64,000 nt of DNA, from contig JAKLIQ010000001.1 of the NCBI GenBank assembly GCA_022709525.1, positions 78,709 to 142,708 on the forward strand, given 5' to 3'. Shown piece after piece: positions 7,308-46,496 of the stretch (positions within the stretch are counted from its first letter, which is position 1; each line of letters starts with the position of its first letter). The stretch is from Candidatus Omnitrophota bacterium. GTDB taxonomy: Bacteria > Omnitrophota > Omnitrophia > Omnitrophales > Aquincolibacteriaceae. A program made the translations under genes and the position numbers. Under the pieces are notes generated by a model that was not told the origin of the DNA, did not search any database, and saw nothing but the letters and a program-made list of their open reading frames with translations.

Positions 7308-7425
7308 AAAGGTAAATGTAGTCCTGATTTCCTCGAAGTTTTTTAGATAAGATCAGGGCAGCACTTGCCCGAAAGCAAGACTTGAGACGTCAGACCAGAG
7401 ACTGTAGACGAAAAAAATAAAAGTT

Positions 7426-8589
7426 TTAGCTGTGGCCTGTTGTCTGTGGTCTGCGGTCTAGGAAATCGAAGATTTCTTTTGCCGCCCGTCTGCTCGCGCC
7501 CTTTTCCCCGAGTTTTTCTTTCACCTCCCGGAACTCTTCTCTCATTTTTTCATGCAGTTCCGGGCTTCGGAGGAAGACGCGCGCTTCATGGGCGAGGGTT
7601 TCGGGGTGGGCGTCCTGCTGGATGAACTCCGGGACCACGCGGGTATCCGCAAGAAGGTTCACAAGGCCCAAGTAGGGGACTTTGATGAGGTATTTCCCGA
7701 GCAAATAGGTGGACCAACTTGCTTTGTAAAGGAGGAAGAACGGCGTTCCGATCAGCGTCGCCTCAAGCGTGGCGGTCCCGGAGGCCACGAACGCAAAATC
7801 CATAGCTTTGACCAGTTCATAGAACGGGGTTTCCGGGCATGTCACCTTTACGGGCGAGGCCTGGAGGAGCGTGTCATAGATTTCGGGGCGCACATTGGCT
7901 GATCTTGAAATAAAGAAAACCGTTTCGGGGATGTCTTTTTGGAGGTAGGAGGCGGCTTTCAGCATGACCGGGAGGATGCGCCGCACCTCTTTTTCCCTTG
8001 AGCCGGAAAAAAGCCCGATCGCCATTTGCTCTTGGGAGATCCCGAGTTGAGAACGCAAAACGGCCGCGTCGGGGAGTTCCGGGATCGCATCCAGCAGGGG
8101 ATGGCCCACGAATTTCACCGCGACGCCTTCCTTTTCATAAAAATCCTTTTCGAACGGCAAGATCACAAGCATCTCACGGATATGTTTTTTAACGATATGG
8201 ATCCTGCGTTTTCCCCAGGCCCAAAGTTGCGGGGAAATATAGTAAAGGACAGGAGCGTTCGCGGAGATCTTTTTAGCGAGCCGGAGGTTAAAGGCCGGGG
8301 AATCGATCAAGACGATGGCGTCGGGTTTTTCCTTCCGGATGTTCCGGATCGTTTCGTGGAAGATCTCGAGGTATTTGAAATAATTCCGGAGCACATCGCC
8401 CAGCCCCAGCGCGGAGATCTTTGTCATATCATGGAAGACCCGCATGCCGGCCGCTTGCATTTTGGCGCCGCCGACGCCGCAGAAAACGGTACCGGGAGCA
8501 AGTTTCCGGATCTCGGAGATCAAATGGGCGCCGTGGAGATCGCCGGATGCTTCACAAGCAACAAGGAAGATTTTTTTAGGAGCCGTCAT
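7426..8589 (-). CDS. lpxB: Lipid-A-disaccharide synthase
   Basis: N-terminus KIFLVACEASGDLHGAHLI plus overall LpxB-like length and motifs. Confidence 0.85.
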   Translation of the reverse strand: MTAPKKIFLVACEASGDLHGAHLISEIRKLAPGTVFCGVGGAKMQAAGMRVFHDMTKISALGLGDVLRNYFKYLEIFHETIRNIRKEKPDAIVLIDSPAFNLRLAKKISANAPVLYYISPQLWAWGKRRIHIVKKHIREMLVILPFEKDFYEKEGVAVKFVGHPLLDAIPELPDAAVLRSQLGISQEQMAIGLFSGSREKEVRRILPVMLKAASYLQKDIPETVFFISRSANVRPEIYDTLLQASPVKVTCPETPFYELVKAMDFAFVASGTATLEATLIGTPFFLLYKASWSTYLLGKYLIKVPYLGLVNLLADTRVVPEFIQQDAHPETLAHEARVFLRSPELHEKMREEFREVKEKLGEKGASRRAAKEIFDFLDRRPQTTGHS

Positions 8590-12147: not shown

Positions 12148-12411
12148 GAATAGGTTCCCTCGTTTCAAGATCGAATCATGCCACGAACCTCTTTTATTGC
12201 GTGGGGGCGTAGTATACAAAAACCAGCGGGGTCGAGCAAGGGCTGTTTGATTTTTCCCCTAAGGTAAGTTATACTGCCCTGCCCTTGTTAAGTTTTTATC
12301 ATCGCTGAACTTAGCACTGTTTTCTATTTAATTTTAAAGGTTAACAGTGCTATACCGCAGACCCGTTGATTTTTAATGTTATGCGGTATTAGAGCGTTTT
12401 TACGGAGGAAA

Positions 12412-14819: not shown

Positions 14820-16015
14820 AATATATCGTCGTAGTGCTTGCGGGCGCCGCGGATCATCCGACCGAAGAGCTCGGTGGCAAGACCCCTTTGGAAGCGGCCA
14901 AGGTCTCGAACTTGAATTTTTTTGCGAAGACCGGCAAGGTCGGGACCGCGAAGCTTGTTTCCGACCGCCTGCCGCCGTCGCCCGATGTGAGTCTCTTCAA
15001 TCTTTTGGGCTATGACGCCGGCAAGCTTTATACCGGCCGTGGCCCGCTTGAGGCGGCGGATAAGGAACTCACGCTTGACGATAAAGAGGTCGCGTTCTGC
15101 ATGAACTTTATCACCGAGGCGGCGGGCAACTTGGCCGACCCGACGGCCGGCAACATCAGCACCAAAGAAGCGAGAGCGCTCGTGAATTTTCTTAACAAGA
15201 AGGTCGCAAGCGATTTCGTCCGTTTCTTTTCCGGGTCCGGGCACCGGCACATCGCCGTGATCAAGGATGCGCACGGGTTCGAAGCCTTATCCGCCAAAAC
15301 CCAGGCGCCGGAAAGCGTGATCGGGGAGAAGATCGACGACATTCTGCCGAAAGGCCCCGGCGAGGAATTGATCCGCAAACTGATGTATGACGCCCGACTG
15401 CTTTTGCAGGACCATGAGATCAACCAGGTGCGCGTGGACCTCGGGGAAAATCCGGCCAACATGGTCTGGCTTTGGGGCCAAGGCAAAAAACCATCGCTTA
15501 AGCCGTTTCGCGAATGTTTTGATATTTCCGGCGGCGCCATGGTCGCCGCGCGCGAATACGCGAAAGGTCTGGGGCGGACGGCGGGCTTGACCGTCATGGA
15601 GGTCAAGGAAGAGGGCGAAGAGCCGGCGGCTTTTTATGACAAGATCTCCAAGGTCGCCATCGACGCCGCGAACGAAAAAGATTTTGTCTGCCTTTTCCTT
15701 CATACGCCGGAAGAAGCGGCGCGGGCCGGGGACGTGAAAGGAAAGATCTCGGCTCTCGAAGGGATCGATTTTTTTGTGTTGTCCAAACTCCGGAAATATC
15801 TCGAACAGTCGAAGGACGCGAGGCTTCTGGTGACGCCGGGGCATGCGACACTCTGGAAAATGAAAGAGACGGTCCGCGATAGCGCTCCGTTCGTCATCGC
15901 CGGCAAGAACATTATGGCGGATGAAGTGGAGCGTTTCTCAGAGATCGCGGCCAAGACTTCGGAATTGAAATTCAACAAAACCACGGAATTGATGCCCTTT
16001 TTTATTACTAAATAA
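14816..16015 (+). CDS. Cofactor-independent phosphoglycerate-mutase (archaeal iPGM/ApgM)-like protein; the proposed non-canonical homoserine kinase of thr operons
   Basis: iPGM-like sequence, overlapping the thrC stop by 4 nt. No thrB is present. Matches my recollection of the TIGR02535 proposed homoserine kinase context. Confidence 0.6.
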
Positions 16016-16017
16016 AG

Positions 16018-16142
16018 GGACTCGTTCCTCGCCTGGCTCTCATTAATTTTTTTGGAAGCCAGTGCAGCACCGTGGTGCGGGACTAGGGACTCGCAAAAAC
16101 AAGGGACGCAGACGAGTCCCGAGGAGCTAGTCCCGAGTCCCC
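16018..16142 (+). repeat. Copy A of a palindromic GGGACTCG...CGAGTCCC element (long form, about 125 nt)
   Basis: It starts 2 nt after the stop codon. It is about 80% identical to copy B at 18995-19120, including the internal hairpin cctggctctc...ggaagccagtgcag. Confidence 0.8.
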
Positions 16143-16200
16143 AACGTGCTTGTTTCTTTGAGATTCAAACATAATCAAATTATTTCTTAGGAGTTAAAAA

Positions 16201-17418
16201 ATGTCACTTATTGTTCAGAAATATGGCGGCTCTTCCGTCGCCAATGCGGAAAAGATCCTGCGGGTCGCTCAACGCGTCATTAAAACGAAACAGGCGGGAA
16301 ATAAGGTCGTGGTGGTCGTCTCCGCCATGGGCGATATGACTGACGACCTTATCACGCTCGCGGACCAAATCAATAGGGATCCCGAAGAGCGCGAAATGGA
16401 TATGCTTCTTTCGACCGGGGAGCAGGTTTCGATCGCGCTTCTCGCAATGGCGATCCACAAACTCGGGCATGAAGCAGTTTCATTTACCGGATCACAGGTT
16501 GGTATTATCACGGACACGTTCCATAGCAAAGCCCGTATTCAAAATATCAGTCCGGAACGCATCAAGAAAGCTTTAGCGGACGGAAAGATCGTGATCGTGG
16601 CCGGTTTCCAGGGGCAGACGCCTTCCGGCGAGATCACAACGCTCGGGCGCGGCGGTTCGGATCTGACGGCCGTGGCGCTCGCGGTGGCTTTGCGTGCGAA
16701 ACATTGCGAGATCTATACGGATGTGGACGGGATCTATACCGCGGACCCGCGTGTGATCCCCGAAGCCAGTAAAATGGATGTCGCGACCTACGACGAGATC
16801 CTGGAACTGGCGTCGCTCGGCGCAAAGGTGATGCATTCCCGGTCGATTGAGGTCGGTAAAAAATTCAACATGCCCATTTGGGTATGCAATTCCCATAAAG
16901 ACATTAAAGGAACTCTTATCACGAAGGAGAACAAGAAAATGGAAGAAGTCGTCGTTAGCGGTGTCGCCCTTGCAGAAGATGAAGCCAAGATCACCCTGTT
17001 CCGCGTGCCGGACCGTCCGGGCGTGGCGGCGAAGATCTTTCAAACGCTCGCCGACGCGAACGTGAACGTGGATATGATCATCCAGAACAAAACGCAGACG
17101 AACTCGACGGACGTGTCCTTTACGGTCTTCAAGAACGAACTGACCAAGGCCATGAAAGTCGTTAAAGCCAACGCCAAAAAACTTGGCGTCAAAGACGTTG
17201 TCTGTGACGAAAATATCGCCAAAGTCTCGATCGTCGGGATCGGCATGCGCTCGCATTCCGGCATCGCGTCCAAAATGTTCTCAACGCTCGCGAAAAATAA
17301 GATCAATATCGATATGATCTCCACTTCCGAGATCAAGATCTCTGTCGTGGTGGCCGGCGACAAGGGCAAGCTCGCCGCCCGCGCCATCCATCAGGCGTTC
17401 GGGCTCGGGAAAAAATAA
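16201..17418 (+). CDS. lysC: Aspartate kinase with C-terminal ACT domains
   Basis: [10 protein letters not shown]-terminal motif; overall aspartokinase-like. Confidence 0.9.
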
Positions 17419-17423
17419 TAAGC

Positions 17424-18989
17424 ATGAAAAGCAAAAGGATCCTCTTTTACGATACAACGCTTCGCGACGGCTCGCAGGCCGAGGGGATCAGCCTGTCCAG
17501 CCACGACAAGGTCTTGATCGCAAAAAGATTGGATCAGTTCGGGATCCACTACATCGAGGGCGGATGGCCGGGCTCCAACCCGAAAGACATGGAATTTTTC
17601 AAAATGATCAAGAAGGCCGGGGTCAGGCGGTCGAAGATCGCGGCATTCGGTTCCACGCGCCGCGCGCATACCAAAGTCAAAGAAGACCCGCAGGTGAAGG
17701 CTTTACTTGAGGCCGGCACCAAGGTTGTAACGGTTTTCGGAAAATCCTGGGATTTTCATGTGACGGAAGTTTTCAAGACCGCGCTTAAAGAAAACCTGCT
17801 CATGATCTACGAGACGGTCGCGTATCTTAAGGACCGGAAGATCGAAGTGATCTATGATGCGGAGCATTTCTTTGACGGCTTCAAGGCGAATCCCGAATAT
17901 GCGCTGAAAGCCTTGCAGCAGGCGGCCAAAGCGGGCGCGAATAATCTCACGCTTTGCGATACCAACGGCGGAACATTGCCCCACGAGGTGCGCCACGCCA
18001 TCCTCAAAGTGAAGCGTACGGTGAAAACACCGCTCGGGATCCACTGTCATAACGATTCCGATCTTGCGGTCGCGAACTCGATCCAGGCCGTAGGAGAAGG
18101 CTGCGTGCTTGTGCAGGGGACCGTCAACGGTTACGGCGAACGCTGCGGGAACGCGAATCTTATCAGTATTATCTCGGACCTACAGCTTAAGATGAAGATC
18201 CCGTGCTTTCCGCCAAAAAAGATGAAAGAACTGACCTCACTTTCACATTATGTCGCGGAGATCTGCAATATGCCGCTTGCCAACAACCAACCGTTCACGG
18301 GGCGGTCGGCTTTTGCGCATAAAGGCGGCGTTCATATTAACGCGATGGTCAAGAACGCCAAAACCTATGAACACGTCGAGCCAAAAGTGGTCGGCAATTA
18401 CCGCCGTTACCTTGTTTCCGAACTCGGCGGCAAGACCAACATCATGATCAAAGCCAAGGAGCTCGAACTGCATTTCCAGAAGGATTCGCCGGAATCCAAG
18501 AAGATCCTGACCGAGATCCAGCGCCTGGAACATGAGGGCTATCAATTCGAGGCGGCGGAAGCGAGTTTTGAACTTCTCGTCCAGCGGCTTCTTGGAAAAC
18601 TCAAGCCGTTCTTTAAAACGGAATCCGTTTCCGTGCGCACCGAAAGGATCGGCGGGGGCGAGCCGCGCTCGATCGCTGACGTGAAACTTTCGGTCGGAGG
18701 GATGGAGCACTTTGAGTCCGCGGAAGGGGACGGCCCGGTGAACGCGCTCGATTCGGCGCTCCGCAAAGCGCTCCAGAAGTCCTATCCCGTGATCCATGAG
18801 ATCCATCTGACCGACTATAAAGTGCGTGTCGTTAATTCCGAAGCCGGCACGGCCGCCAAAGTGCGCGTTTTCATTGAATTCCAGGATAAAGAAAAAACCT
18901 GGACCACGGTCGGCGTTCACGAGAACATCATCGAAGCCAGCTGGAAAGCCCTCGTCGAAGCGATCGAGTATAAACTGCATAAAGGATAA
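17424..18989 (+). CDS. cimA: Citramalate synthase / 2-isopropylmalate synthase family (LeuA type 2, CimA-like)
   Basis: TTLRDGSQAEG HMGL-like motif; roughly 520 aa with a C-terminal regulatory domain. Context with lysC/hom/thrC suggests a threonine-independent isoleucine route. Confidence 0.65.
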   Translation: MKSKRILFYDTTLRDGSQAEGISLSSHDKVLIAKRLDQFGIHYIEGGWPGSNPKDMEFFKMIKKAGVRRSKIAAFGSTRRAHTKVKEDPQVKALLEAGTKVVTVFGKSWDFHVTEVFKTALKENLLMIYETVAYLKDRKIEVIYDAEHFFDGFKANPEYALKALQQAAKAGANNLTLCDTNGGTLPHEVRHAILKVKRTVKTPLGIHCHNDSDLAVANSIQAVGEGCVLVQGTVNGYGERCGNANLISIISDLQLKMKIPCFPPKKMKELTSLSHYVAEICNMPLANNQPFTGRSAFAHKGGVHINAMVKNAKTYEHVEPKVVGNYRRYLVSELGGKTNIMIKAKELELHFQKDSPESKKILTEIQRLEHEGYQFEAAEASFELLVQRLLGKLKPFFKTESVSVRTERIGGGEPRSIADVKLSVGGMEHFESAEGDGPVNALDSALRKALQKSYPVIHEIHLTDYKVRVVNSEAGTAAKVRVFIEFQDKEKTWTTVGVHENIIEASWKALVEAIEYKLHKG

Positions 18990-18994
18990 AGCCG

Positions 18995-19120
18995 GGGACT
19001 CGGGATTCGTAGCTCGCCTGGCTCTCGTTAATTCTTATCGGAAGCCAGTGCAGTACTTTAGTGCGGGACTCGAAAAAACGAGGAACCAAAACGAGTCCCT
19101 AGGAACTAGTCCCCAGTCCC
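18995..19120 (+). repeat. Copy B of the GGGACTCG...CGAGTCCC element (long form)
   Basis: It starts 6 nt after the cimA stop. It is homologous to copy A over about 125 nt. Confidence 0.8.
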
Positions 19121-19129
19121 GTTTTCATT

Positions 19130-21988
19130 ATGGACCTAGACAAACAATATAATTCCAAAGAAGTCGAGACGAAATGGTATTCCCTATGGGAATCGAAGGG
19201 CTATTTCCGTCCGCAGAGCGACGAAAAACGGGGACTCCGGGCTCGGGACTCGTCCCTCGGAAAAGTTCCTCACGAGTCCCTAGGAACTAGTCCCGAGCGA
19301 CGTCCGTATGTGATCGTGATTCCGCCACCGAACGTGACGGGGATCCTGCACATGGGCCATGCGCTCAACAATTCCATTCAGGATATCCTTGTTCGCTGGA
19401 ACCGTATGAAGGGCCGGGACACGCTCTGGGTTCCGGGCGTTGACCACGCGGGCATCGCGACGCAGAACGTGGTCGAGAAAAAACTCGCCAAAGAAAAGAA
19501 AACGCGCTGGGATCTTGGCCGCGAAAAGTTTCTCAAAGAAGTCTGGAAATGGAAAGAAGAGCACGGTTCCACGATCACGCGCCAGCTGAGGCGGCTTGGC
19601 GCCTCCTGCGACTGGTCGCGAGAGCGTTTTACAATGGATGAGGGGCTCTCCAAGGCCGTGCGCGAGGCTTTTGTCACGCTTTATGAAAAGGGCCTGATCT
19701 ATCGCGGCAATTACATCATTAATTGGTGCCCACGCTGTGAGACCGCGCTTTCGGACGAAGAGGCGGCGCACAAGGACGTGCAAGGCGGCCTTTATCATAT
19801 CAAGTATCCCTGCCTGCCGGCCGGCAGGCTATCGTCGGAAGTCCGCGGACCGTATGAGAAAATGGGTGAGGATCATATTGTGGTCGCCACGACCCGGCCC
19901 GAGACCATGCTGGGTGATACCGCGGTCGCAGTCCATCCGGATGATCCGCGCTACAAGCACCTGATCGGTCAAAAGGTCATCCTGCCTTTAATGGAACGCG
20001 AGATCCCTGTGATCGCCGATGAACTTGTCGATCCCGAATTCGGAACCGGGATCGTCAAGGTCACGCCCGCGCATGACCCGAACGATTTCGCGATAGGGCA
20101 CCGCCACAAACTCGAACAGGTCAATGTTATGACGCCGGACGGCAAGATCAATGAAAACGGCGGCGCCTATAAGGGCATGGACCGCTTCGAAGCCCGCAAG
20201 AAGATCCTCCATGACCTCGAAGAGCGCGGGCTTTTTGTCCGTCGCGATTCGCATTTGCACGCGGTCGGGCATTGTTATCGTTGCGATACCGTGATCGAGC
20301 CTTATCTTTCCAAGCAATGGTTCGTCAAGATGCAGCCGCTGGCCGAGAAAGCGCTCAAAGCTCATGAACAGGGAAAGACCGTTTTCTATCCTGACCGCTG
20401 GACCAAGGTTTATACCAACTGGCTTCGCAATATCCGCGACTGGTGCATTTCCCGCCAAATTTGGTGGGGGCATCAGATTCCAGCCTGGCATTGTTCCCAA
20501 TGCCAGGCTGCGGGACTCGCATCTCGCACCTCGGGGCTCGACAAGCGAGAAATCCAAACGAGTCCCGAGTCCCGAGTCCCGAGCAACGATGGGATTATCG
20601 TTGCCCGCGAGAAACCCGGAAAATGTCCCCGCTGCAGCAGCAAAGACCTCGTTCAAGACCCCGATGTGCTCGATACATGGTTTTCCTCTTGGTTGTGGCC
20701 GTTCTCAACGCTTGGTTGGCCGGAAAAAACCGACGATGTGAAAAAGTTTTATCCGACGTCGGACCTGATCACGGCGCCGGAGATCATCTTTTTCTGGGTC
20801 GCGCGCATGATCATGGCGGGTCTGGAATTCATGGGAGAAGTTCCTTTCAGTCGCATTTATATTCACGGAACGGTCCGCGCGGCAACCGGTCTTAAAATGT
20901 CAAAATCGCTCGGCAACTCGATCGATCCGCTCGAAGTGATCGAAGAAATGGGTGCCGACGCGCTCCGTTACAGCATGATCATGCTCTCCTCGCAGGATGT
21001 TTTCCTCTCCCGGGAGAAGTTTGAAGTCGGCCGCAATTTTGCCAACAAAGTCTGGAACGCCTGCCGGTTTGTTTTGATGCAGATCGCGGATCTCAAAGAA
21101 GCTTCAGCGGATCCAAAACAATTCGAAAGATCAGCGTTATCCCTTCCAAGCCGCTGGATCCTTTCTCGACTGGAAGAAAAGTCCGCCGGGATCGAACGCC
21201 ATCTTGCGCAATTCGGCCTCGCCCAGGCCGCGACCGAGCTTTATCATTTCGTATGGGACGATTTTTGCGACTGGTATATCGAGCTCGCCAAACCGATGAT
21301 CCAATCCGAAGACCCTGCGGTAAAGCTCCAGACGCAAAAAGTCCTTTTCTTTGTCTGTGAGAGGATCCTCCGGCTTCTGCATCCTTTTGTGCCGTTCATC
21401 ACCGAAGAGATCTGGCAGAAATTCAAAGAAAGAGCCGTGGACGGGAAGACTTGGCCGGAAAGCATCATGCTCGCCGCATGGCCGCACGACGGGAAGAAGC
21501 AATTCCATGACGCGGCCGCCCAGAAAGCCGTCGGCTTTTTGCAGGATGCCGTGACCGGGATCCGGGACCTGCGCGTCCGGTTCCAGATCGCGCCGACCGA
21601 TAAATTGAAAGCGGTGGTCGTCTGCAAAGAAAAAGGGACCCAGGAGGTTTTCAAGGCCTTTGAACGCGAAGTGAAAACGCTCGGCCGGTTGGCGGAACTT
21701 CAGTGTGTCCGCGAATTCCAGAAAAAAGGCGCTATGGCGGCCAATTCGTTCGCCGCGTTCGATGTCTTCATTTCTCTCGAGGGGATCCTGGACCCCGAGG
21801 AAGAGAAAAAGCGGCTCCAGAAAAAGATCCGGGAGACCGAACAGTGGATCGAACAGATCCTTAAAAAAGTCGGGAATCCTTCTTTCGCCGAAAAGGCTCC
21901 GAAGGAGATCCTTGAGAAAGAGAAAGAAAAACTCGAAGATGCCAAAAAACTTCTCGTATCCTACAAGACCCAGCTCGCAAGTTTCTAG
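19130..21988 (+). CDS. valS: Valyl-tRNA synthetase
   Basis: HIGH motif (PPPNVTGILHMGHALN) and KMSKS motif (KMSKSLGN), plus a C-terminal coiled coil. It carries two in-frame repeat-derived inserts. Confidence 0.9.
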   Translation: MDLDKQYNSKEVETKWYSLWESKGYFRPQSDEKRGLRARDSSLGKVPHESLGTSPERRPYVIVIPPPNVTGILHMGHALNNSIQDILVRWNRMKGRDTLWVPGVDHAGIATQNVVEKKLAKEKKTRWDLGREKFLKEVWKWKEEHGSTITRQLRRLGASCDWSRERFTMDEGLSKAVREAFVTLYEKGLIYRGNYIINWCPRCETALSDEEAAHKDVQGGLYHIKYPCLPAGRLSSEVRGPYEKMGEDHIVVATTRPETMLGDTAVAVHPDDPRYKHLIGQKVILPLMEREIPVIADELVDPEFGTGIVKVTPAHDPNDFAIGHRHKLEQVNVMTPDGKINENGGAYKGMDRFEARKKILHDLEERGLFVRRDSHLHAVGHCYRCDTVIEPYLSKQWFVKMQPLAEKALKAHEQGKTVFYPDRWTKVYTNWLRNIRDWCISRQIWWGHQIPAWHCSQCQAAGLASRTSGLDKREIQTSPESRVPSNDGIIVAREKPGKCPRCSSKDLVQDPDVLDTWFSSWLWPFSTLGWPEKTDDVKKFYPTSDLITAPEIIFFWVARMIMAGLEFMGEVPFSRIYIHGTVRAATGLKMSKSLGNSIDPLEVIEEMGADALRYSMIMLSSQDVFLSREKFEVGRNFANKVWNACRFVLMQIADLKEASADPKQFERSALSLPSRWILSRLEEKSAGIERHLAQFGLAQAATELYHFVWDDFCDWYIELAKPMIQSEDPAVKLQTQKVLFFVCERILRLLHPFVPFITEEIWQKFKERAVDGKTWPESIMLAAWPHDGKKQFHDAAAQKAVGFLQDAVTGIRDLRVRFQIAPTDKLKAVVVCKEKGTQEVFKAFEREVKTLGRLAELQCVREFQKKGAMAANSFAAFDVFISLEGILDPEEEKKRLQKKIRETEQWIEQILKKVGNPSFAEKAPKEILEKEKEKLEDAKKLLVSYKTQLASF
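19231..19295 (+). repeat. Copy C of the element (short form), in-frame inside valS, encoding RGLRARDSSLGKVPHESLGTSPER
   Basis: gggactccgggctcgggactcg...cacgagtccctaggaactagtcccgag matches the termini of copy B. The GYF...IPPPN spacing is about 23 aa longer than in E. coli ValRS as recalled. Confidence 0.7.
20511..20584 (+). repeat. Copy D of the element (short form), in-frame inside valS, encoding AAGLASRTSGLDKREIQTSPESRVPSN
   Basis: cgggactcgcatctcgcacctcggggctcg...aaacgagtcccgagtcccgagtcccgag. Confidence 0.7.
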
Positions 21989-26730: not shown

Positions 26731-27153
26731 GTGGATACAAAACTCAAGTCAGACATAGCAGAAAGTGCCGTTCTTACCCGGCTTTTGAAAGAGGGATTTA
26801 GAGTTCTTAAACCCGTAGGCGACAGGTTGCCATACGACCTGGCCTTGGACATGGGTAAAAAACTTTTCAAGATCCAAGTCAAAAGCGCGTGGGGCAAGGA
26901 CGGCATCTACAATGTTGACAGCCGGCGGACCAAAACAAACCGGCGGAAAATGTTGCGAAGTCGTTATGCTGAAGACGACTTTGATTTTGCTGTGTTGTAT
27001 ATTGAGGATCTCGGTATTTTCTATGTGATGCCGCGGAATGTTTTTGATTCTTATAAAAGCGGGATCAGAATTGTAGAAAAGATCACAAGGCAGAGAACGC
27101 CGAGATCCGGAAAATATCGCGAAGCTTGGGATTTGTTGAAAAGGGCCGCTTAA
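26731..27153 (+). CDS. Intron-encoded putative homing endonuclease, 140 aa, possibly PD-(D/E)xK-type like I-Ssp6803I of the cyanobacterial tRNA-fMet intron
   Basis: The ORF fills the peripheral 5' part of the intron. Motif LPYDLALDMGKKLFKIQVKS is PD-(D/E)xK-like. Its GTG start lies 3 nt after the 5' splice site, so the true start is uncertain. Confidence 0.5.
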   Translation: MDTKLKSDIAESAVLTRLLKEGFRVLKPVGDRLPYDLALDMGKKLFKIQVKSAWGKDGIYNVDSRRTKTNRRKMLRSRYAEDDFDFAVLYIEDLGIFYVMPRNVFDSYKSGIRIVEKITRQRTPRSGKYREAWDLLKRAA

Positions 27154-27253
27154 CCGGAAACGGTTAAGGCAACACCTGTCAAACTCGGTGAACCCTGTCA
27201 GATGGGAATACCGAACCAAGCCTTACGGATCGTTCGTGAGGAAGGCGTAGAGA

Positions 27254-28981
<1,728 letters not shown>

Positions 28982-29227
28982 GATGACAGGCCTCCTTTCA
29001 GGCAGGGATCGAAAGCGCCAGCCCGGCGCTTTGATCGAGAAACGAATAATACACCCGCCGTCAAGTGGACGGAAGCCGTTCGCCCTTTCTGTTTTGCTAT
29101 CCAATGCCGAACCAGCCATTGCGCAAGCATAGCTAATGAGCCGTTCCGGGCATATTCCGGAGGCGGCTCGGGCATCTCAAAATCTTCGATGGTCAGATCT
29201 CTGGATTTATCAGCTCTATCCCGATCC

Positions 29228-30061
29228 TTATGTGCAGGATGGATCAGAGACAGCACCTCCCTTGTAGCGTTTATAGCGCTGTTTATAAAACTCTTCTTTC
29301 TCAAACCGGCGGAGTTCTGCTTCCGCCTTGTGGATTTCGTCGTACTCGTCAACGAAGTCCTCATCAAACTCAAGATAATTGTTCAAAACGAGTGTGCTGT
29401 TCTTTTTGTTGACGAAAGTTGTTTCTCCTTCGCGTCTGAGCAGTTCCTCCATCGTTGCGAAATAGAAACACTCCGGACAATGTTCAAGTTTCTTGAACCA
29501 CTCGATCATCGATTTTCTTTCCACGAGATAGAGAAAGGCGCTGATGCCCTCGTTTTTGACCCAGGTATCTATGAGCACCCGATCATAATACCGCTTACTC
29601 TTCAGCGTCCGTTCGATCTCGATCACAAAACTGTGTTTTCGGCCATCATCAGCCAGGCCATCCGGGACCTTTCTCCGTTCCGTCTTACTTTTCAACACGC
29701 GCTCAGATGTCCAGATGAGCCCCGGAGAACGCTCTAGGATAATACGCGCATCCGTGACCCAAACATCGTGCTCGTAGATTTTCAGGTCCACTCCATCCAG
29801 CGGTCGTAGTCCGTTCGACAGATCCAGGCTCCTCAGGTGCTTTACGCCTTTGGCGGTCGTGAGATAAAGCGTGTCATGACCGACCCTTGGCTTCACGGCT
29901 TTCAAATAACCCTGTCGCATCAGGAGATTCACTCTTCTTGCCGGGACCTTGTACATGCTCAGGCTCTCGGGGAAGAACTTCTTGGCGATATGCCTCAGGA
30001 GCAGAAACTTCTGCTCAAGGCACATCTTCAGGATCTCCGAATCTCTTTCTGTAATGATCAT
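29228..30061 (-). CDS. Hypothetical protein with N-terminal winged-helix-like region (possibly replication-relaxation family)
   Basis: N-terminal helix-turn-helix-like region ILKMCLEQKFLLLRHIAKKF...LMRQGYLK and an acidic C-terminus. It lies in the recombinase island. The family assignment is a guess. Confidence 0.3.
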   Translation of the reverse strand: MIITERDSEILKMCLEQKFLLLRHIAKKFFPESLSMYKVPARRVNLLMRQGYLKAVKPRVGHDTLYLTTAKGVKHLRSLDLSNGLRPLDGVDLKIYEHDVWVTDARIILERSPGLIWTSERVLKSKTERRKVPDGLADDGRKHSFVIEIERTLKSKRYYDRVLIDTWVKNEGISAFLYLVERKSMIEWFKKLEHCPECFYFATMEELLRREGETTFVNKKNSTLVLNNYLEFDEDFVDEYDEIHKAEAELRRFEKEEFYKQRYKRYKGGAVSDPSCT

Positions 30062-30235
30062 CCGCTACTTGTTCCTTATCTGATTTCGTGAGAGACATAT
30101 TAAAAATTGATCTGACGGTGGAGCGATCTGCGTCGTGTCATTTTTGTGATCTTCAAATCTCCGGTACTTCTTGGGCTTTAGCGCCGTGTTAGCAACCAGG
30201 CTTTAGACTGGTCTTGGTTTTTATTTATAATTTCA

Positions 30236-30587
30236 AATACCCCTCATGGGACATTGAGTTAAGGAGGGGGCGTTCAACGTTTGCGCACATTTTTATACTT
30301 GAAATAAATTTTCACGAACATCGATCTGATCCATTTAACCTGTCCGAAAGATCCCAAATTCTCCGGAAACCGTTCCGCAAGAAAATCATCAATTTCCCAA
30401 ACAAGCCTCTCATGGGAGGTCGAGTTACGACATGGTCGTTCACACCAAACGAACATTTCTAAGCTTGAAATAAATTTTTCAGCGATTTTGTCCGCCTTTC
30501 TTTTACCTTGATAACCCCTCATGGGAGGTCAATTTACGACATGGGTGTGACGCTTTTGGGAAGGTTTTTAAGCTTGAAATAAAGTTT
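30236..30587 (+). repeat. Three imperfect direct repeats of 75-80 nt (30236-30311, 30405-30479, 30514-30587), iteron-like
   Basis: Each unit has the form cctcatgggaggtcRaKttacgacatgg...cttgaaataaaKttt. Peptides encoded inside are not conserved between copies, so a DNA or RNA function is more likely. Confidence 0.6.
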
Positions 30588-31027
30588 ATCGCATAGCAAC
30601 TGCCACTCGGATAAAAGCTCCGGAGGGATTAAGGTCTTGATAGGTAAGAACCCAAAGAAGGAATCTTAAAGGTCGTCTTTTGTTTATGCCCGGTCCACCA
30701 GAGGACGGATCTGTCTAACGCGATGTGGCAGATAAGAACCGGGGAAAGTTAAGAGCATGGGGACATTCAAAACGATATATTTCTTAAAAACAGAAGAAAG
30801 GATTATCCCTATCCAGCCCAGATTCATTTCAACAGCTTGCCCGAAGCCCGTCACAATGCAGCCGACCACTCCATCTCGCTCCAACAGATTATGAGAGGGA
30901 GTGGTCGGGTGCACGCAACAAGGGCGAAGGGCAAGCGCTGATTGAACTTAAGTAGGGCTGGACTGGTGGAATCCATTCCCTCACTTCATTCCACCGACCT
31001 GACCCGATCGAAATCGGTCAAAAATGT

Positions 31028-31072
31028 GAATGGTATACTCGACTTTACAAATGGTATATCGAATGGTATACT
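31028..31072 (+). promoter_or_regulatory. Three tandem (G/A)AATGGTATA(C/T) boxes upstream of fic
   Basis: gaatggtatac, aaatggtatatc and gaatggtatact lie 40-85 nt upstream of the fic ATG. Three similar boxes lie at 32138-32181. Confidence 0.5.
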
Positions 31073-31113
31073 GATGTTGAAGCTAGACCGTTAACCGAAA
31101 CAGAGGTGCAACC

Positions 31114-32151
31114 ATGAATTCCTTCAAGAATGATAATCTCGAAATGCCTTTAAGCTCGGTTTGGCTGCTGAGCGGGATCTCGGAGTACAAAGGCAAGCAG
31201 GAACTTTACACAAAGCAGGCACCGCAGGTCCTTAAAACCCTTATTGAAATGGCGCTAATCGAAAGCGCGGAATCTTCCAACCGCATCGAAGGCGTCACAG
31301 TTGACCGGGAACGTCTTAAACCGCTCGTTATCGGTCATAGCAAGCCCCGGGACCGCTCTGAAGAGGAAGTGGCCGGATACCGCAAGGCCCTCGACCTGAT
31401 TCATAAAAAATACGACACCTTGCAGATCACTCCGGATCTTATCAAGGAACTGCATCGTTTATGCCGGGGTGAATCATGGGATGCCGGGAAGTGGAAGGAG
31501 AAGGATAACGACATTATCAAAAAATACCCCGATGGCCGCGTGGAAGTGATCTATAAGCCCGTTAGCGCGGCGAAAACACCGGAGGCCATGGAGCAACTGT
31601 GCCTTAGCTACAGACATAGCATCGATCAGCTGAGATACCCTTCGCTTTACGCCATCGCCTGCCTTGTTCTTGATTTCCTCTGCGTCCATCCTTTCCGGGA
31701 CGGGAACGGCAGGGTTTCCAGGCTTCTGACATTACTGGCGCTTTATCAACACGGGTTTATGGTGGGAAAATATATCAGCATCGAGCGCATTGTGGAGCAG
31801 TCCAAGGAAACGTATTACGAGACGCTCAACAAAAGCTCACAGCAGTGGCATGAGGCCAAACATGATGTCCTTCCGTGGTTTAATTATTTCCTGGGGACCA
31901 TTACCGCTGCCTACAAGGAATTCGAAGAACGCGCCAGCCATGCAAGCCCGGAACGGGGCGCCAAGACCGGCATTGTCGAGGCCGCGGTTGATCGGCAGCT
32001 TGGAGAATTCAGTATTTCCAATATTGAGCAAGAGTGTCCGAATGTCAGCCGGGTCATGATCAAAAAAGTTCTCAGCCAGATGAGCAACGCCAAAAAGATC
32101 AAATGCCTCGGCAAGGGCAAGTCAGCCAAGTGGTTGCGAATGGTATCCTAA
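31114..32151 (+). CDS. fic: Fic family protein (class II, with an internal inhibitory SxxxEG helix and a C-terminal winged-helix)
   Basis: Fic motif HPFRDGNGRVSR; inhibitory motif SAESSNRIEGV near the N-terminus. Confidence 0.9.
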   Translation: MNSFKNDNLEMPLSSVWLLSGISEYKGKQELYTKQAPQVLKTLIEMALIESAESSNRIEGVTVDRERLKPLVIGHSKPRDRSEEEVAGYRKALDLIHKKYDTLQITPDLIKELHRLCRGESWDAGKWKEKDNDIIKKYPDGRVEVIYKPVSAAKTPEAMEQLCLSYRHSIDQLRYPSLYAIACLVLDFLCVHPFRDGNGRVSRLLTLLALYQHGFMVGKYISIERIVEQSKETYYETLNKSSQQWHEAKHDVLPWFNYFLGTITAAYKEFEERASHASPERGAKTGIVEAAVDRQLGEFSISNIEQECPNVSRVMIKKVLSQMSNAKKIKCLGKGKSAKWLRMVS

Positions 32152-32181
32152 GTCTCGCGATGGTATATCAAATGGGATATT
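32138..32181 (+). promoter_or_regulatory. Second set of three ATGGTATA-like boxes, overlapping the fic stop and preceding nuc
   Basis: gaatggtatcc, gatggtatatc and aaatgggatatt lie immediately upstream of the ATG at 32187. Confidence 0.45.
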
Positions 32182-32186
32182 AACGA

Positions 32187-32723
32187 GTGCACATGCGAAA
32201 AAACATCTGCTGTATAGTTGTTCTGATCATTATTTTTCTCTCCATCCCCGCATCGTTGCAAGCCAAACAAACGGCCACCGATGAGCAGGTTTATTTTTCC
32301 CCTAAAGGTGGATGCACAGAGGCCATTGTCAAGAATCTGGATCAGGCCGAAAGATATGTGCTTGTTCAGGCATATTCCTTCACGTCGAAGCCCATTGCCG
32401 AAGCTCTCGTCGACGCGCACAAGCGCGGCGTGAAAGTAAAAGTGCTTTTGGACAAGAGTCAGCGGAATGGCAAAGGGAGCAAGCTCTCCCTATTGGCTGA
32501 GGCCGGGATACCTGTCAGCATTGACACCAAACACTCGATTGCTCACAATAAGGTTATGATTATCGACGGCGTTACTGTAATCACGGGTTCTTTCAATTTT
32601 ACCAGCGCCGCCGAAGACAAAAACGCCGAAAATCTTTTAGTCGTTAGAGATAAGGTTATCGCGAGGAAATACCGCAATAACTGGAACAAACATCAGAAGC
32701 ATTCCGAGCTGTATCAGATATAA
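32187..32723 (+). CDS. nuc: Secreted phospholipase-D superfamily endonuclease (Nuc-like)
   Basis: Signal peptide; HxK(x4)D motif IAHNKVMIIDG; size and organization like plasmid Nuc. Confidence 0.8.
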   Translation: MHMRKNICCIVVLIIIFLSIPASLQAKQTATDEQVYFSPKGGCTEAIVKNLDQAERYVLVQAYSFTSKPIAEALVDAHKRGVKVKVLLDKSQRNGKGSKLSLLAEAGIPVSIDTKHSIAHNKVMIIDGVTVITGSFNFTSAAEDKNAENLLVVRDKVIARKYRNNWNKHQKHSELYQI

Positions 32724-32801
32724 AATATGCGGCGAGATAAAAACCGATGTATTCCTTGAATGACAGAGATAGAGGAATTGAAAATGAGGAGGAAATGCCA
32801 A

Positions 32802-33530
32802 ATGAAAAAAGCGATTTTAGCGTTGTGTGGGATAATGTTATTAATGCTCGAAACATTTACGCCCTGCTGTGTTGCCGAGGAAAGCAAAAGATATACGGAT
32901 GAATTTTTATTCGTCAATTCTTATCTTGAGTGCTTAGAAAATTATATATCTATTCAAACATATGATGGTCTTATGGTAACAGGAAAGGCCAATTATTCTT
33001 CCGAAGAAGTTGTCAACAGCGCTTTTATGAAACAATTAAAAAAAGAACAGGAATTCATTTCGGAAATGATTCGTGCAATGGGAAAATATTCCGATTCTCC
33101 GGTAGATAGCATCAAGAACGCCTCCAATACAATTTTGGAAAAATATCAGAAAATGCAAGCTCTGAACACCAAAGCGCAAGATGCATATTTTCATGTGAAG
33201 ACGGGGCAATTTAAGGCGGGCATTTTGACCGGCAGCGAACTTTTCGATGAAAAGCAAGCTATTGAAAGCGGCATGTTTTTTGAGGAAGAAAATTTAATGA
33301 GACAAATTTTGTTTCCCAAAGGTAGCTCTGTAATGAAAATAACTGCCGAAGAGAAAAAACAGCTTCAAGAAAAAATAAGAAGCTTAAAACAGATCAGCCT
33401 TGCCAAGGAGCATTCTATTGGCGAAGGAGAGTATTTAGTGGCCGAGGGAGGACAGTTTCTCAAATTTTTTTTACAGGCTTTCCAACGATTTATAGATATT
33501 AATTTTCCTTGTTTGAAAACAGTAGCGTGA
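32802..33530 (+). CDS. Secreted hypothetical protein, low GC
   Basis: Signal peptide MKKAILALCGIMLLMLETFTPCCVA. RBS gaggagg lies 9 nt upstream. The alternative start is 32784. Confidence 0.4.
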   Translation: MKKAILALCGIMLLMLETFTPCCVAEESKRYTDEFLFVNSYLECLENYISIQTYDGLMVTGKANYSSEEVVNSAFMKQLKKEQEFISEMIRAMGKYSDSPVDSIKNASNTILEKYQKMQALNTKAQDAYFHVKTGQFKAGILTGSELFDEKQAIESGMFFEEENLMRQILFPKGSSVMKITAEEKKQLQEKIRSLKQISLAKEHSIGEGEYLVAEGGQFLKFFLQAFQRFIDINFPCLKTVA

Positions 33531-33627
33531 AATAGCTGTGGTGTTTTAGTTCCGCTTATGCATCGCTTATTTTAAAACGAAACTCCAGAATTTTGAGCGA
33601 GGTAGGCCCAAAAGGAGATGCTATAAA

Positions 33628-34311
33628 ATGACTATGGAAGCGCACTGTTTCCAAAACGTTCAATGGATTAAATTTATCTTGCCGATCTTTGCGACATTTC
33701 TTGGCGCTTGGCTCGCTTTTTTCTTGCAAAATCGTAGGGATGCTAAAAAACAGGAAAAAACCAACTATGGAGTACTTTTAAAAACACAGGCGTTATTTTA
33801 TGAATATTTTGAAGCTATTTATTCGGTCAAAAAAGATTTTTTAGACCAGCATGCAAAAGACGCAGAGAGATCAACAAGGGTTAAGCATATTAGTCTTTGC
33901 CAAAAGTTCTCTGAGCTTGATTTCGAAGGCATATCCTTTATCCTTACAACAAAAAATCCGGACTTGTTTGGTGATATTGTATGCACCTATAGAAAGTGCG
34001 TTTCGGCTATAGAAGCCATTAATGAGCGCAATAAGCAATACGGAAAATACAGCGGAGGGATTGCCAAAAGTATCGATTTGGGAAGTGGCAAATCTCAGGT
34101 AGATTTAATATTTCTTAGAGATTTTACAGACATTATGTATAGGGAAACGGATCAGGTGCTACAACGCATTAAACAAATCGACGGTGAATTACAGCAATTC
34201 ATAAAAGAAAAATTTAAAGGGAAACATGCCCTGAAAGTTACTTTTGTCGAGACTGCGACGCAATGCGCCAAAGGAAATGCAGACGGAGGCGGTCATGAAA
34301 CCGTCGCTTAA
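33628..34311 (+). CDS. Membrane-anchored hypothetical protein (one N-terminal TM helix)
   Basis: RBS aaggag; TM segment FILPIFATFLGAWLAFFL; no recognizable domain. Confidence 0.4.
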   Translation: MTMEAHCFQNVQWIKFILPIFATFLGAWLAFFLQNRRDAKKQEKTNYGVLLKTQALFYEYFEAIYSVKKDFLDQHAKDAERSTRVKHISLCQKFSELDFEGISFILTTKNPDLFGDIVCTYRKCVSAIEAINERNKQYGKYSGGIAKSIDLGSGKSQVDLIFLRDFTDIMYRETDQVLQRIKQIDGELQQFIKEKFKGKHALKVTFVETATQCAKGNADGGGHETVA

Positions 34312-35161
34312 AAATAAGATATTAAACTATATCGCTATGGGGTTTATTTTTTCCCCATGTTTATTGCCCCCTTTTCTTTGGATTAGATTGCTTGCGGTTG
34401 ATATCGATGTTAAGTTGAAAATAATGTGCCTTGCCTTTTTCAGCGCCGTCGTTCCTCTTATGATTGTCATTCTCGGTTTTGCCTGGGTTTGTTTTTTTGC
34501 AGTTTGCCTGTTCTTTAAAAATGTTTTCGACGAAACATTTCGTAATAAGCATGATTCATATCGAGATAATGATAAATGGCTCAGTGAAACCTTCAGTGAT
34601 GTTCATAAGCTTTTTAATAAGTGGGATAAATCAGAGAGGTGGAAAAAAACCAACGCAACGCTTCTGTGTGTCTTTTTTTTATCGGGAGCAGGAATTTCTT
34701 GGATTGATTTCGACCATAGAATTAAAGTGAAAACCGATAATCTTTCAAACATTGTTTCCATGAACATCATTGGGGATATCGATTTGCCAGTTTCTAAGCA
34801 AGGCCTTGTAAAACAGCGTGGTCTCCCAAAATCTGTTGATGTCCGATACCGGGGCGATGGGAAGAAATACAAGTTTGAAACATTGAGTTATGACTGGGCG
34901 GCCGGGCAAATGGAGGTTGTTTTCGTCAATGACAACTATGCGGATGGAATTGTTCGATATAAGCCGACGGATTTAAGCGTAAAAGTTTTGTTGCGTGATG
35001 TGTCGCACGTAAAGCAAAAGCCTTTGAAGTCTTATACCATTAGCGTCGTGAATACTAACGGCAAAACTTTATTAATTCGTGTCCAAAAAAATCAAAAAAT
35101 AAGTTCGATCACATATTTTGGTTCTTCCGCAAAGAAAGGGGCGATAAGACTGCTCCGATAA
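34295..35161 (+). CDS. Polytopic membrane protein with a C-terminal beta-rich soluble domain, hypothetical
   Basis: It overlaps the upstream ORF by 17 nt. GGAGG lies 5 nt before the ATG. There are 4-5 predicted TM helices. Confidence 0.4.
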   Translation: MKPSLKNKILNYIAMGFIFSPCLLPPFLWIRLLAVDIDVKLKIMCLAFFSAVVPLMIVILGFAWVCFFAVCLFFKNVFDETFRNKHDSYRDNDKWLSETFSDVHKLFNKWDKSERWKKTNATLLCVFFLSGAGISWIDFDHRIKVKTDNLSNIVSMNIIGDIDLPVSKQGLVKQRGLPKSVDVRYRGDGKKYKFETLSYDWAAGQMEVVFVNDNYADGIVRYKPTDLSVKVLLRDVSHVKQKPLKSYTISVVNTNGKTLLIRVQKNQKISSITYFGSSAKKGAIRLLR

Positions 35162-35214
35162 GGGATCATTTTCGATATAACTATCAAAGAAGTTGTTTTT
35201 ATCTGGAGCAAGTT

Positions 35215-35691
35215 ATGGGTCATTGGGATCGCAAGAATGTTCCGCAAAAAGGATGGGAATGCATTGATTTCTATGATTTATGTGCCGATGCGAATGAAGT
35301 TTATGCAACATGTGAAATGTGTGGGCAAGAGCGAATACGATATGTTCATGTAATGCGGCATCCAGATTTTTATGACGACTTGTTGGTTGGCTGTGTATGT
35401 GCCGGAAAAATGTCAGATGACTATGTCAATCCTGAAAAACACGAAAAGATTCTGAGTAATCGATCAAAACGTCGAAAAAGTTGGCTGAGCCGAACTTGGC
35501 GAGTATCGGCAAAGGGTAATGATTTTCTTAATGTTAAGGGGCATAACGTAACCATTTTTCCAGCAAAGTATCGATTAGGCCATTGGTGTTTTAAGATAGA
35601 CGATGATTTTAATCAAAATACCTATGAAGACAAAAATCGCGCAAAATTGGCGGCATTTGACTTGCTGCAAAAATATAACGAAAAAATTTAG
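35215..35691 (+). CDS. Cys-rich (CxxC...CxC) zinc-finger-like hypothetical protein
   Basis: CEMCGQ...GCVCAGK cysteine cluster. It is the last gene of an apparent three-gene operon. Confidence 0.4.
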   Translation: MGHWDRKNVPQKGWECIDFYDLCADANEVYATCEMCGQERIRYVHVMRHPDFYDDLLVGCVCAGKMSDDYVNPEKHEKILSNRSKRRKSWLSRTWRVSAKGNDFLNVKGHNVTIFPAKYRLGHWCFKIDDDFNQNTYEDKNRAKLAAFDLLQKYNEKI

Positions 35692-35712
35692 TTAATCGAG
35701 ATGGTTAGGTCC

Positions 35713-35950
35713 ACGGTTTCAAACCGCAAATTCTCCTCGGCCCAATATTTCGCGAAATGTTCCCCACTTTTCCGGATTTCACGCTCGACGGCCCGATTAA
35801 GAACAGATATAATCACCCAGCTGTTTTAGGGAAAATTTCAAGGTGGGCTTAAGAGGTTCTTACGGGCTGCGGACGGGATTGCGGGGAAAGATCAACGGTT
35901 TCAAAAGCGAGAGCTTCCTCGGTCCAGTATTTGGCGAAATGTTCCCCCGC
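35713..35950 (-). pseudogene. Two diverged copies (35713-35768 and 35893-35950) of a decayed coding fragment. Minus-strand translations are ...EHFAKYWAEENLRFET... and ...EHFAKYWTEEALAFET...
   Basis: A 56-nt direct repeat whose differences are concentrated at codon third positions when read on the minus strand. Neither copy has a start codon or a long ORF. Confidence 0.4.
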
Positions 35951-35962
35951 TACCAATTGAGA

Positions 35963-36000
35963 AACCCGCCAGGGATTTATTCCTTGGCGGGTTTTTCTTT
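35963..36000 (+). terminator. Rho-independent terminator
   Basis: aaacccgccagg-gatttattc-cttggcgggttt followed by tttcttt. Confidence 0.6.
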
Positions 36001-45840: not shown

Positions 45841-46496
45841 TGAACTTTCATTCCAAGAAGCACCATGGTTCTGATAAAAAATCTCAGGATCCGTCCTCGG
45901 AAAAACAGGAAACCGCGCCTTCTCCGGCTCCAGGCAAGGACGGCAAGATCGAGATATCAGTTCACGAATATGAGGAGCTCAAAAAGAAGGTCCAGGAAAT
46001 CGAGGGGTTGCGGGAAAAATTCCTGCGCGCGGCCGCGGATTTCGAGAACGCCAAGAAACGGAACGCCAAAGAAAAAGAGGATTTCATTAAATTCAGCCAG
46101 GAAAGGATCCTGCGCGAGATCCTGCCGGTGCTGGATAATTTTGAGCGGGCGGTGAGCCACGCGACCGCGGCTTCGGCGAACGCTTCGGCCTATGAGGACC
46201 TGCGGAAAAATCTGACCACCGTGATCGCGGGCGTCGAGCGAGTGGAAAAACAGCTGGTCGATATCCTTAAAATGCACGGCCTGAAACGGATCGAAACTTC
46301 GGGCCAAATCTTCAACCCTCATTTCCATGAGGCCGTTGCGCACGTAGCCGAAGAGGGCAAAGAGGACCAGATCGTCGACGAGCTGGAGCCCGGCTACATG
46401 CTTCACGACCGTCTTCTCCGTCCGGCCAAAGTCCGGGTCCGGACATCTCCCAAACGGACGTCCGCTCCCGAAGAAAAACAGGACGAGATCACCTAA
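45837..46496 (+). CDS. grpE: Nucleotide exchange factor GrpE
   Basis: GrpE core [21 protein letters not shown]...[11 protein letters not shown]. Its ATG overlaps the hrcA stop. Confidence 0.85.

Follow-up and report, generated by a model that had tools for sequence, protein, structure and literature searches.

Heptamer repeats rich in G, with the form GGGANTN, first came to light as the STRRs of cyanobacteria and have been catalogued in Xanthomonas. Here we describe six palindromic elements, E1 to E6, in a 64,000-nucleotide stretch from a Candidatus Omnitrophota bacterium (GenBank assembly GCA_022709525.1, contig JAKLIQ010000001.1, forward-strand positions 78,709 to 142,708), hereafter the window. 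By unit form, pairing and placement, E1-E6 are members of this repeat class. We lean towards reading them as non-autonomous, selfish repeats with a hairpin fold, similar in kind to REP/REPIN sequences and Rickettsia palindromic elements (RPE), which were inserted as a defined element.

Rehm et al. (2015, PLoS One, PMC4692102) described repeats of GGGAATC in Xanthomonas and of GGGGA(C/T)T (STRR) in Nostoc. A Xanthomonas genome has about 185 repeats, written (GGGANTN)n, and 70-75 per genome are paired as convergent inverted repeats. Most are found no more than 50 nt past a stop codon among co-oriented open reading frames (ORFs), and 7-11% are intragenic. They are transcribed, show no link to insertion sequences and form G-quadruplexes (G4) in vitro, and their function "remains to be elucidated" (PMC4692102). 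E1-E6 share with them heptamer arrays of at least two units with GGGANTN-like variants, the arrangement in inverted pairs, the position of four copies 1-16 nt past stop codons and the intragenic position of the other two. They differ in their unit, GGGACTC, in their Omnitrophota host and in arms of 2-4 units that include non-G-rich ones. In addition, they have a loop family consensus, two clean in-frame insertions in an aminoacyl-tRNA synthetase gene and two nested modules.

Three other systems are close in some respects. RPEs are likewise palindromic and dispersed, occur both between genes and in frame within protein genes, where the extra surface peptide is tolerated, and have proliferated in a lineage-specific manner; an RPE-7-like insert of 63-84 bp lies in PheT, an aminoacyl-tRNA synthetase (PMC1779305). 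However, RPEs are by description set apart from E1-E6, being 100-150 bp long, AT-rich, confined to Rickettsiales and free of 7-nt tandem units, and a relation in sequence is not to be expected. REPs and REPINs (Bertels and Rainey 2011, PMC3116915) resemble our elements as short palindromes in inverted doublets that fold in single-stranded DNA or mRNA. REPINs, the most thoroughly studied hairpin doublets, number hundreds per genome in genome-specific families, and new copies insert into or beside existing ones (PMC3116915). They depend on RAYT transposases, whose gene is bordered by REPs of the same kind, whereas no RAYT or Y1_Tnp was found among the called genes of the window. Moreover, REPs are essentially extragenic and 20-35 nt long, whereas two of our six elements are intragenic and the arms of all six are heptamer arrays. 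Finally, the TAACTGA heptamers of Beggiatoaceae, Cyanobacteria and Bacteroidetes, proposed to be sites for a translational regulator (MacGregor 2015, PMC4679880), also consist of a tandem 7-nt word at many intergenic sites in distant phyla with no evident transfer mechanism. Unlike E1-E6, they are direct repeats of an AT-rich word, placed immediately ahead of start codons, and inverted copies are rare.

Six palindromes with tandem heptamer arms

Counted over both strands, the window contains 20 copies of the motif GGGACTCG, an 11-fold enrichment over the 1.84 expected from dinucleotide-preserving shuffles (0 of 100 shuffles reached 20), and its relaxed form GGGACTNG occurs 26 times against 6 expected. 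The GGGACTCG matches cluster as the six elements, and a lone, partnerless match at 42356 looks like a chance occurrence. All six elements are inverted pairs that form imperfect palindromes, and their arms are tandem arrays of a 7-nt unit with the layout (GNNNCTC)n - loop - (GAGNNNC)n. Left units are mostly GGGACTC, as in GGGACTC GTTCCTC..., GGGACTC GGGATTC GTAGCTC... and GGGACTC GCATCTC GCACCTC GGGGCTC, and the units include GGGACTC/A/G. Right arms, such as CGAGTCC CGAGGAG CTAGTCC CGAGTCC, are complementary. The loops measure 12-39 nt and are mostly A-rich on the sense strand. Tandem Repeats Finder reported a period of 7 at four arms (16113-16141, 20559-20583, 48139-48169 and 48178-48201).

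Four elements, given without strand, lie between co-oriented genes in co-directional gene strings and begin 1 nt (E1), 5 nt (E2), 7 nt (E5) and 16 nt (E6) past the upstream stop codon. E1, a long composite at 16017-16141, separates a PhosphMutase-family member of the hom-thrC cluster ("thrB-like", stop 16013-16015) from lysC (start 16201). Its left side consists of the outer arm GGGACTC GTTCCTC, a nested module and GGGACTA GGGACTCG, followed by an A-rich loop of 19 nt and the right arm CGAGTCC CGAGGAG CTAGTCC CGAGTCCC. E2, the second long composite (18995-19120), lies between cimA (stop 18987-18989) and valS (ATG 19130); its loop is aaaaaacgaggaaccaaaa, and GTTTTC follows its right arm. Among the short copies, E5 (46504-46575), with a degenerate right arm and the 3' flank GGTTTTATT, lies between grpE (stop 46494-46496) and dnaJ (ATG 46586). 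E6 (48137-48199), laid out as GGGACTC GTATCTC GGGACTCG, loop, CGAGTCC CTGGTCC CGAGTCCC, lies between a 4HBT thioesterase gene (stop 48118-48120) and gpsA (start 48248). The remaining short copies, E3 (about 19231-19301) and E4 (20512-20584, right arm (CGAGTCC)x3), stand in frame on the plus strand within valS.

Folded as RNA, five of the six elements are significantly more stable than their shuffles, with -57.4 kcal/mol for E1 (z = -3.8), -52.5 for E2 (multibranch, z = -3.8), -39.4 for E4 (z = -4.4), -35.2 for E5 (z = -3.2) and -35.5 for E6 (z = -4.0); E3 folds more weakly (z = -1.6). E1-E4 are present without any difference in six independent assemblies of the same species (one metagenome-assembled genome (MAG) at NCBI, three JGI metagenomes and two ENA entries, 99.95-100% identical to the window). 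Thus, the elements are real and not assembly artefacts. Hypervariability or phase variation was also considered and is rejected for short time scales, given the constant length across these assemblies.

A preliminary description of this DNA had proposed a homologous, dispersed, hairpin-forming family with REP-like placement, two copies being long and four short. The motif enrichment, the significant folds and a full-length alignment of E1 with E2 bear this out, and the placement of the four intergenic copies agrees with it; that two short copies lie within the valS frame had been missed. The alignment gives 85% identity, higher than the earlier value of about 80%. The second long copy was placed correctly and the first, given as 16018-16142, was off by one, while the start "2-6 nt after a stop codon" is right as to the post-stop position, with true distances of 1 and 5 nt. 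An internal hairpin, cctggctctc...ggaagccagtgcag, and iterated ends are both present as described. The supposed terminal inverted repeats GGGACTCG/CGAGTCCC, by contrast, are the innermost units of the 7-nt tandem arrays.

Two observations concern how the arrays arose. The composite right arm CGAGTCC-CGAGGAA/G-CNAGTCC-CGAGTCC is common to different loci and MAGs, which suggests that a defined element was copied and that the arrays did not grow in place. Furthermore, the E2 loop matches 18 of 19 bases of the loop in a non-orthologous copy from another MAG (L022, 3141-3203).

The unit also raises the question of whether the elements are simple-sequence repeats that act through four-stranded DNA or RNA, as G-quadruplexes or i-motifs, a role that has been proposed for the GGGAATC and GGGGACT repeats. 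It has the form G3N4, as in the repeats that form G4 in vitro (PMC4692102), and arms in other phyla often reach four or more units. However, no element here has four G3 tracts with loops of at most 7 nt, and none overlaps a canonical G4 motif. The G-rich heptamer class prefers at least four intact G-tract units, whereas an arm here has at most three neighbouring G3 tracts. Omnitrophota arms average 2.3 units, many of which lack GGG (GTTCCTC, GCATCTC). G4 potential is thus missing here because the arms are shorter and mixed with non-G-rich units, and the complementary arm would compete through a hairpin of -32 to -57 kcal/mol. We therefore give this explanation hardly any credence.

A two-hairpin module nested in the long elements

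The long form is not a length variant of the short one. It is a composite of the short palindrome and a separate 48-49-nt two-hairpin module, which is nested in the left arm between two heptamers. The module spans 16031-16078 (+) in E1 and 19016-19064 (+) in E2. Hairpin A has a bulged U and the form GCCTGGCTnTC - AT-rich loop - GGAAGCCAGTGC (GCCTGGCTCTC-loop-GGAAGCCAGTGC in E1); it is directly followed by hairpin B, which reads GCAC-cgtg-GTGC in E1 and GTAC-ttta-GTGC in E2. A covariance model of hairpin A (R1) scores 59.2 bits on E1 and 55.7 bits on E2, and these are the only two copies in the window.

At orthologous sites in some relatives the short palindrome occurs by itself. In L117, the closest relative, the site between cimA and valS carries a short palindrome without an inner hairpin, whose right arm is the same as that of E2 and whose loop, aaaaaacaaagagccaaaa, is nearly the same. 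In L120 and L107, the spacer between the thrB-like gene and lysC has a short form that shares the flanks of E1 but lacks the module. Scanning of metagenome contigs yielded 14 more module copies within differing host palindromes. Two of them (L123, L131), as well as a locus from the genome scan (L010), lie within GGGACTC palindromes; seven (L121, L122, L126, L127, L128, L132, L134) lie within the unrelated family GTCATTGCGAG...CTCGCAATGAC, and the others elsewhere. The stem of hairpin B varies among copies (GCAC, GTAC, GTACTTGCC, GTCCCAATTC, GTACTGAAT) yet always pairs. The module is missing from orthologous short elements and found in unrelated palindromes. It is thus an entity in its own right, either a second small element or a structured motif, for which palindromes serve as the landing site.

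An Rfam scan of nine module-bearing contigs gave no match. The nearest precedent is probably the small dispersed repeats (SDR) of Nostoc punctiforme, which Elhai et al. (2008, Genome Research) reportedly described as mobile sequences of 21-27 nt nested in other repeats or hairpins; size and sequence differ from those of the module. As a separate observation, GTCATTGCGAG...CTCGCAATGAC is a different, widespread palindrome family.

Insertions in valS and turnover of intergenic sites

The valS frame (19130-21988, 952 aa) stays open across both E3 and E4. E3 encodes roughly RGLRARDSSLGKVPHESLGTSPE, residues ~33-57 of valyl-tRNA synthetase (ValRS), between the N-terminal helix and the HIGH-motif strand; compared with Thermus thermophilus ValRS (1gax), this peptide falls in an unaligned stretch ahead of that strand. 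E4 is an insertion of 69 nt, or 23 codons, which encodes LASRTSGLDKREIQTSPESRVPS at residues ~462-484, in the CxxC...CxxC loop of the zinc knuckle, where 1gax has a gap. The predicted insert peptides include RGLRARDSSLGK... and ...TSPESRVPS. In an AlphaFold2 model of ValRS with a mean predicted local distance difference test score (pLDDT) of 72, the values fall below 50 at residues 35-56 and 465-485, which correspond to the two inserts; the model has further low-confidence segments.

We compared 116 Omnitrophota orthologues of ValRS; every relative named by its source is a Candidatus Omnitrophota. Both insert sites are short in many of them, scattered over the tree, for example "SDSGKKTTGKPYV" (L140) and "CQAAGQEGILVSR". 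In others the sites are filled by translations of heptamer arrays, either of the GGGACTC type (RDSGL..., ...SPESRVPS) or of other types (TTDQRPQT...SLQSEVCSL). The zinc-knuckle site carries an insert of at least 8 residues in 45 of the 116. E4 is also present in L117, and a very similar E3 in L118. Palindromic inserts in frame are typical of RPEs, and the insertions in valS resemble them in that the host protein is left intact, a likeness of behaviour and no evidence of homology.

The in-frame repeat evidently misleads the prediction of the ValRS start site. The JGI gene calls (L002, L005) begin ValRS at an internal GTG past E3 and give a protein of 892 aa, while NCBI and ENA give 952 aa. The 952-aa protein is the right form, because its N-terminal 32 residues are conserved in all orthologues.

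The alleles with and without E4 bear on whether the family is a lineage-specific miniature inverted-repeat transposable element (MITE), with GGGACTCG/CGAGTCCC as terminal inverted repeats and a DDE transposase that reads those ends. Inverted ends, small size and many copies would suit a MITE. Compared with the empty allele of L140 (...GCGGGAC|AAGAG...), however, E4 is a clean 69-nt insertion after the native GGGA(C) with no target-site duplication. The supposed ends are iterated internal units of variable number, the long form is a nested composite, the window has no transposase with matching ends, and the family is not specific to the lineage. A MITE is thus very improbable.

Beside the two insert sites, orthologues such as P0095 carry ValRS inserts at about six more positions (around residues 232-244, 530, 660, 728 and 770-790). 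Some of these, such as ...PLPEGEG... and ...SPPSRGRGKGEG..., look as if palindromic repeats of other known kinds had been translated.

Intergenic sites turn over as well, as seen in the syntenic loci of related Omnitrophota (L107, L117, L118, L119, L120, L140 and L022). The spacer between the thrB-like gene and lysC is occupied in the window, L107, L118 and L120, and is filled by different heptamer families in L119 and L022. The empty versions, with 30 nt and no hairpin, are those of L117 and L140, which are mutually homologous. Across the thrB-like-lysC, lysC-cimA and cimA-valS spacers of L119, L120, L022, L118 and L140, we found palindromes built from the words GGGCCAC, GGATGTA, TCCAAGN and GTGTCAA. 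The words differ among the genomes: GGGACTC occurs in the window, L117 and L118, GGGCCAC in L119 and L140, GGATGTA in L120 and TCCAAGN in L022. The word CAGACCA occurs in many ValRS orthologues and at 7385-7460 of the window. The word at one site tends to match that at other sites of the same genome, and GGGACTC-type and GGGCCAC-type elements have the loop motif GAAAAATCC in common. A neighbour-joining tree of ValRS is star-like with short internal branches and cannot separate repeated insertion from concerted rewriting of the arms.

The second heptamer family of the window, at 7385-7460, has the layout GACGTCA GACCAGA GACTGTA - A-rich loop - CTGTGGC CTGTTGT CTGTGGT CTGCGGT. There is an overlap between the right arm of this palindrome and the 3' end of lpxB (ORF 7426-8589 on the minus strand), and the repeat thereby supplies the final ~10 codons of LpxB together with its stop. 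The same family also yields the TTDQRPQT...SLQSEVCSL inserts of ValRS orthologues.

One possible explanation is that the elements are selected, cis-acting RNA hairpins, which would stabilise intercistronic mRNA or act as partial terminators, and which would arise and be kept wherever an operon requires a stem-loop past a stop codon. The position of the intergenic copies 1-16 nt past stops in co-directional strings would suit such a role, as would the short T runs behind E5 and, weakly (only GUUUUC), behind E2. Most relatives have some heptamer palindrome at the same spacers despite the differing families, and the Xanthomonas repeats are transcribed (PMC4692102). However, two of the six copies lie within a coding frame, the close relatives L117 and L140 do with hairpin-free spacers of 30 nt, and other genomes have copies between divergent genes. 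E1 and E6 have no U tract, and in a terminator scan the only sense-strand report was part of E5, terminator-like sites not being enriched over shuffles. We consider this explanation unlikely, though well worth keeping in view.

Because U tracts are mostly lacking and the scan shows no enrichment, the terminator association proposed earlier is not supported in the sense of canonical intrinsic (Rho-independent) terminators. Rfam, at the gathering threshold, had no match in the whole window, and a permissive scan of 15900-19400 returned a chance-level S15 match only. A sigma-54 promoter reading of CTGGCTCTC... was rejected, since the -12 element is missing as judged by eye.

Occurrence across phyla and origin of the arrays

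To analyze the distribution of these palindromes, we scanned one genome per species with the pattern GGGACTCG-N10-40-CGAGTCCC-N9-GTCCC. At least 110 stretches carry GGGACTC-armed palindromes, against an estimated ~8 chance matches at uniform base composition, or a few tens when high G+C is allowed for. Among the matches listed, 96 of 110 exceed the pattern's minimum of canonical units and 72 of 110 have four or more; up to ten loci occur in a single MAG. The hosts among these matches are Acidobacteriota, Gemmatimonadota, Omnitrophota, Xanthomonadales (Lysobacter, Rhodanobacter, Pseudoxanthomonas, Dyella, Xanthomonas), Hyphomicrobiaceae, Craterilacuibacter, Planctomycetota and others, so that the palindromes occur in at least six phyla or classes. 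The claim that the element is specific to its lineage is thereby refuted, and the wide distribution is new relative to PMC4692102. Any explanation must be general, given that the palindrome occurs in at least six distant lineages.

By crude gene calls, 45 of the matches listed lie between co-oriented genes, 13 between convergent and 7 between divergent genes, in agreement with the Xanthomonas pattern (PMC4692102), and 29 lie inside long ORFs. Pfam-confirmed in-frame insertions were found in PriA and PrmC (Omnitrophota), LeuRS (Acidobacteriota) and HrpA (Lysobacter). Repeated in-frame insertion in essential enzymes such as ValRS, PriA, PrmC and LeuRS affects gene calling and the variation of protein length in uncultured phyla. 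The loops of the matches listed are alike within a genome and unrelated between phyla.

If the elements are selfish repeats, as we favour, a trans-acting activity that recognises the folded arms in single-stranded DNA would copy them to new sites, and arm length would shift in 7-nt steps through slippage. Copies would survive only at harmless sites, either right after stop codons in operons or, where their length is a multiple of three, in surface loops. In-frame survival would be easy because canonical arrays are stop-free in all six frames: judged from overlapping triplets, (GGGACTC)n arrays and their complement contain no TAA, TAG or TGA. Transcribed copies would form stable stem-loops, which may incidentally shield the upstream mRNA 3' end or weakly attenuate read-through.

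Several results weigh against this reading. As noted, the insertion at E4 has no target-site duplication relative to the empty allele of L140, and none was found between the filled intergenic site of L022 and its empty counterpart (window 12200-12380), a comparison that is not clean. No clean excision footprint was found, and the N-terminal site of E3 resembles the replacement of a native linker and not a simple insertion. The six assemblies, at 99.95-100% identity, show no insertion polymorphism, and thus no sign of activity on short time scales. Neither a Y1- or DDE-type transposase nor another candidate mobilising gene is among the called genes of the window. Viral contigs gave only 4 matches in 2.9 million, which offers no obvious vehicle of spread; carriage by phages was rejected on this count. 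It is also hard to see how a single mobile family would bring one and the same 7-nt word, combined with unrelated loops, into at least six phyla, and the sharing of the word may have a conserved host factor or a DNA-structural cause. Finally, a test for extra complementarity between arms at non-canonical units was null in Omnitrophota (2.22 vs 2.24 of 7) and only marginal in other phyla (3.40 vs 3.18), a result that we set aside because the register is unreliable.

The invariant positions across phyla, GGGA-N-TC, suggest another possibility, namely that the elements are binding or modification arrays for a conserved trans factor that reads the 7-nt register. One example would be a ring-shaped RNA-binding protein on NAG-N4 repeats, perhaps akin to HutP or TRAP; another would be a restriction system or adenine methyltransferase of the GANTC type. 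GANTC is contained in all three common words, GGGACTC, GGGAATC and GGGATTC, and a genome tends to use one word at many sites. GACTC/GAGTC is depleted about 2-fold outside the elements (23 observed vs 44 expected) and reaches 40 per kb inside them; a GAGTC-specific restriction-modification system or a codon effect may account for the depletion. However, GAATC and GATTC are not depleted outside the elements, and Omnitrophota relatives use GANTC-free words (GGGCCAC, GGATGTA, CAGACCA) in the same architecture. No candidate factor was found. Such arrays are, in our view, improbable.

It is equally a long shot that bacteria of many phyla share a trans-acting system which produces or preserves inverted arrays, each genome having a 7-nt word of its own. 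Its sites may be permissive ones that include loops of essential proteins, and its words GGGACTC, GGGCCAC, GGATGTA, TCCAAGN, CAGACCA and, in Xanthomonas, GGGAATC. Differences at the same site may then be arms rewritten in concert with a changed factor, protein or template RNA, and not independent insertions. The matching of words across a genome's sites, the common GAAAAATCC loop motif and the (G-rich unit)n-filler-(complement)n layout are compatible with such a system. Such a layout would result if repeats were added from a template at each 3' end of a break and the ends were then joined. If dedicated machinery exists, it would represent a widespread genome-shaping activity that has so far escaped notice; if not, E1-E6 would be ordinary selfish repeats. 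Related Omnitrophota, in which a given site may be filled, empty or occupied by another family, offer material for studying the mechanism of insertion.

The window has several other features. The region 26749-36000 has the look of an integrated element, with a large serine recombinase gene (27254-29119, minus strand), PDDEXK_5, Fic and PLD-like genes, several ORFs without a family match and a 21-nt inverted repeat (90% complementary) at 30857-30913. An autotransporter of 1554 aa is encoded at 37998-42662. A giant beta-helix/RHS-like protein of 4357 aa starts at about 51670 and runs past the end of the window.

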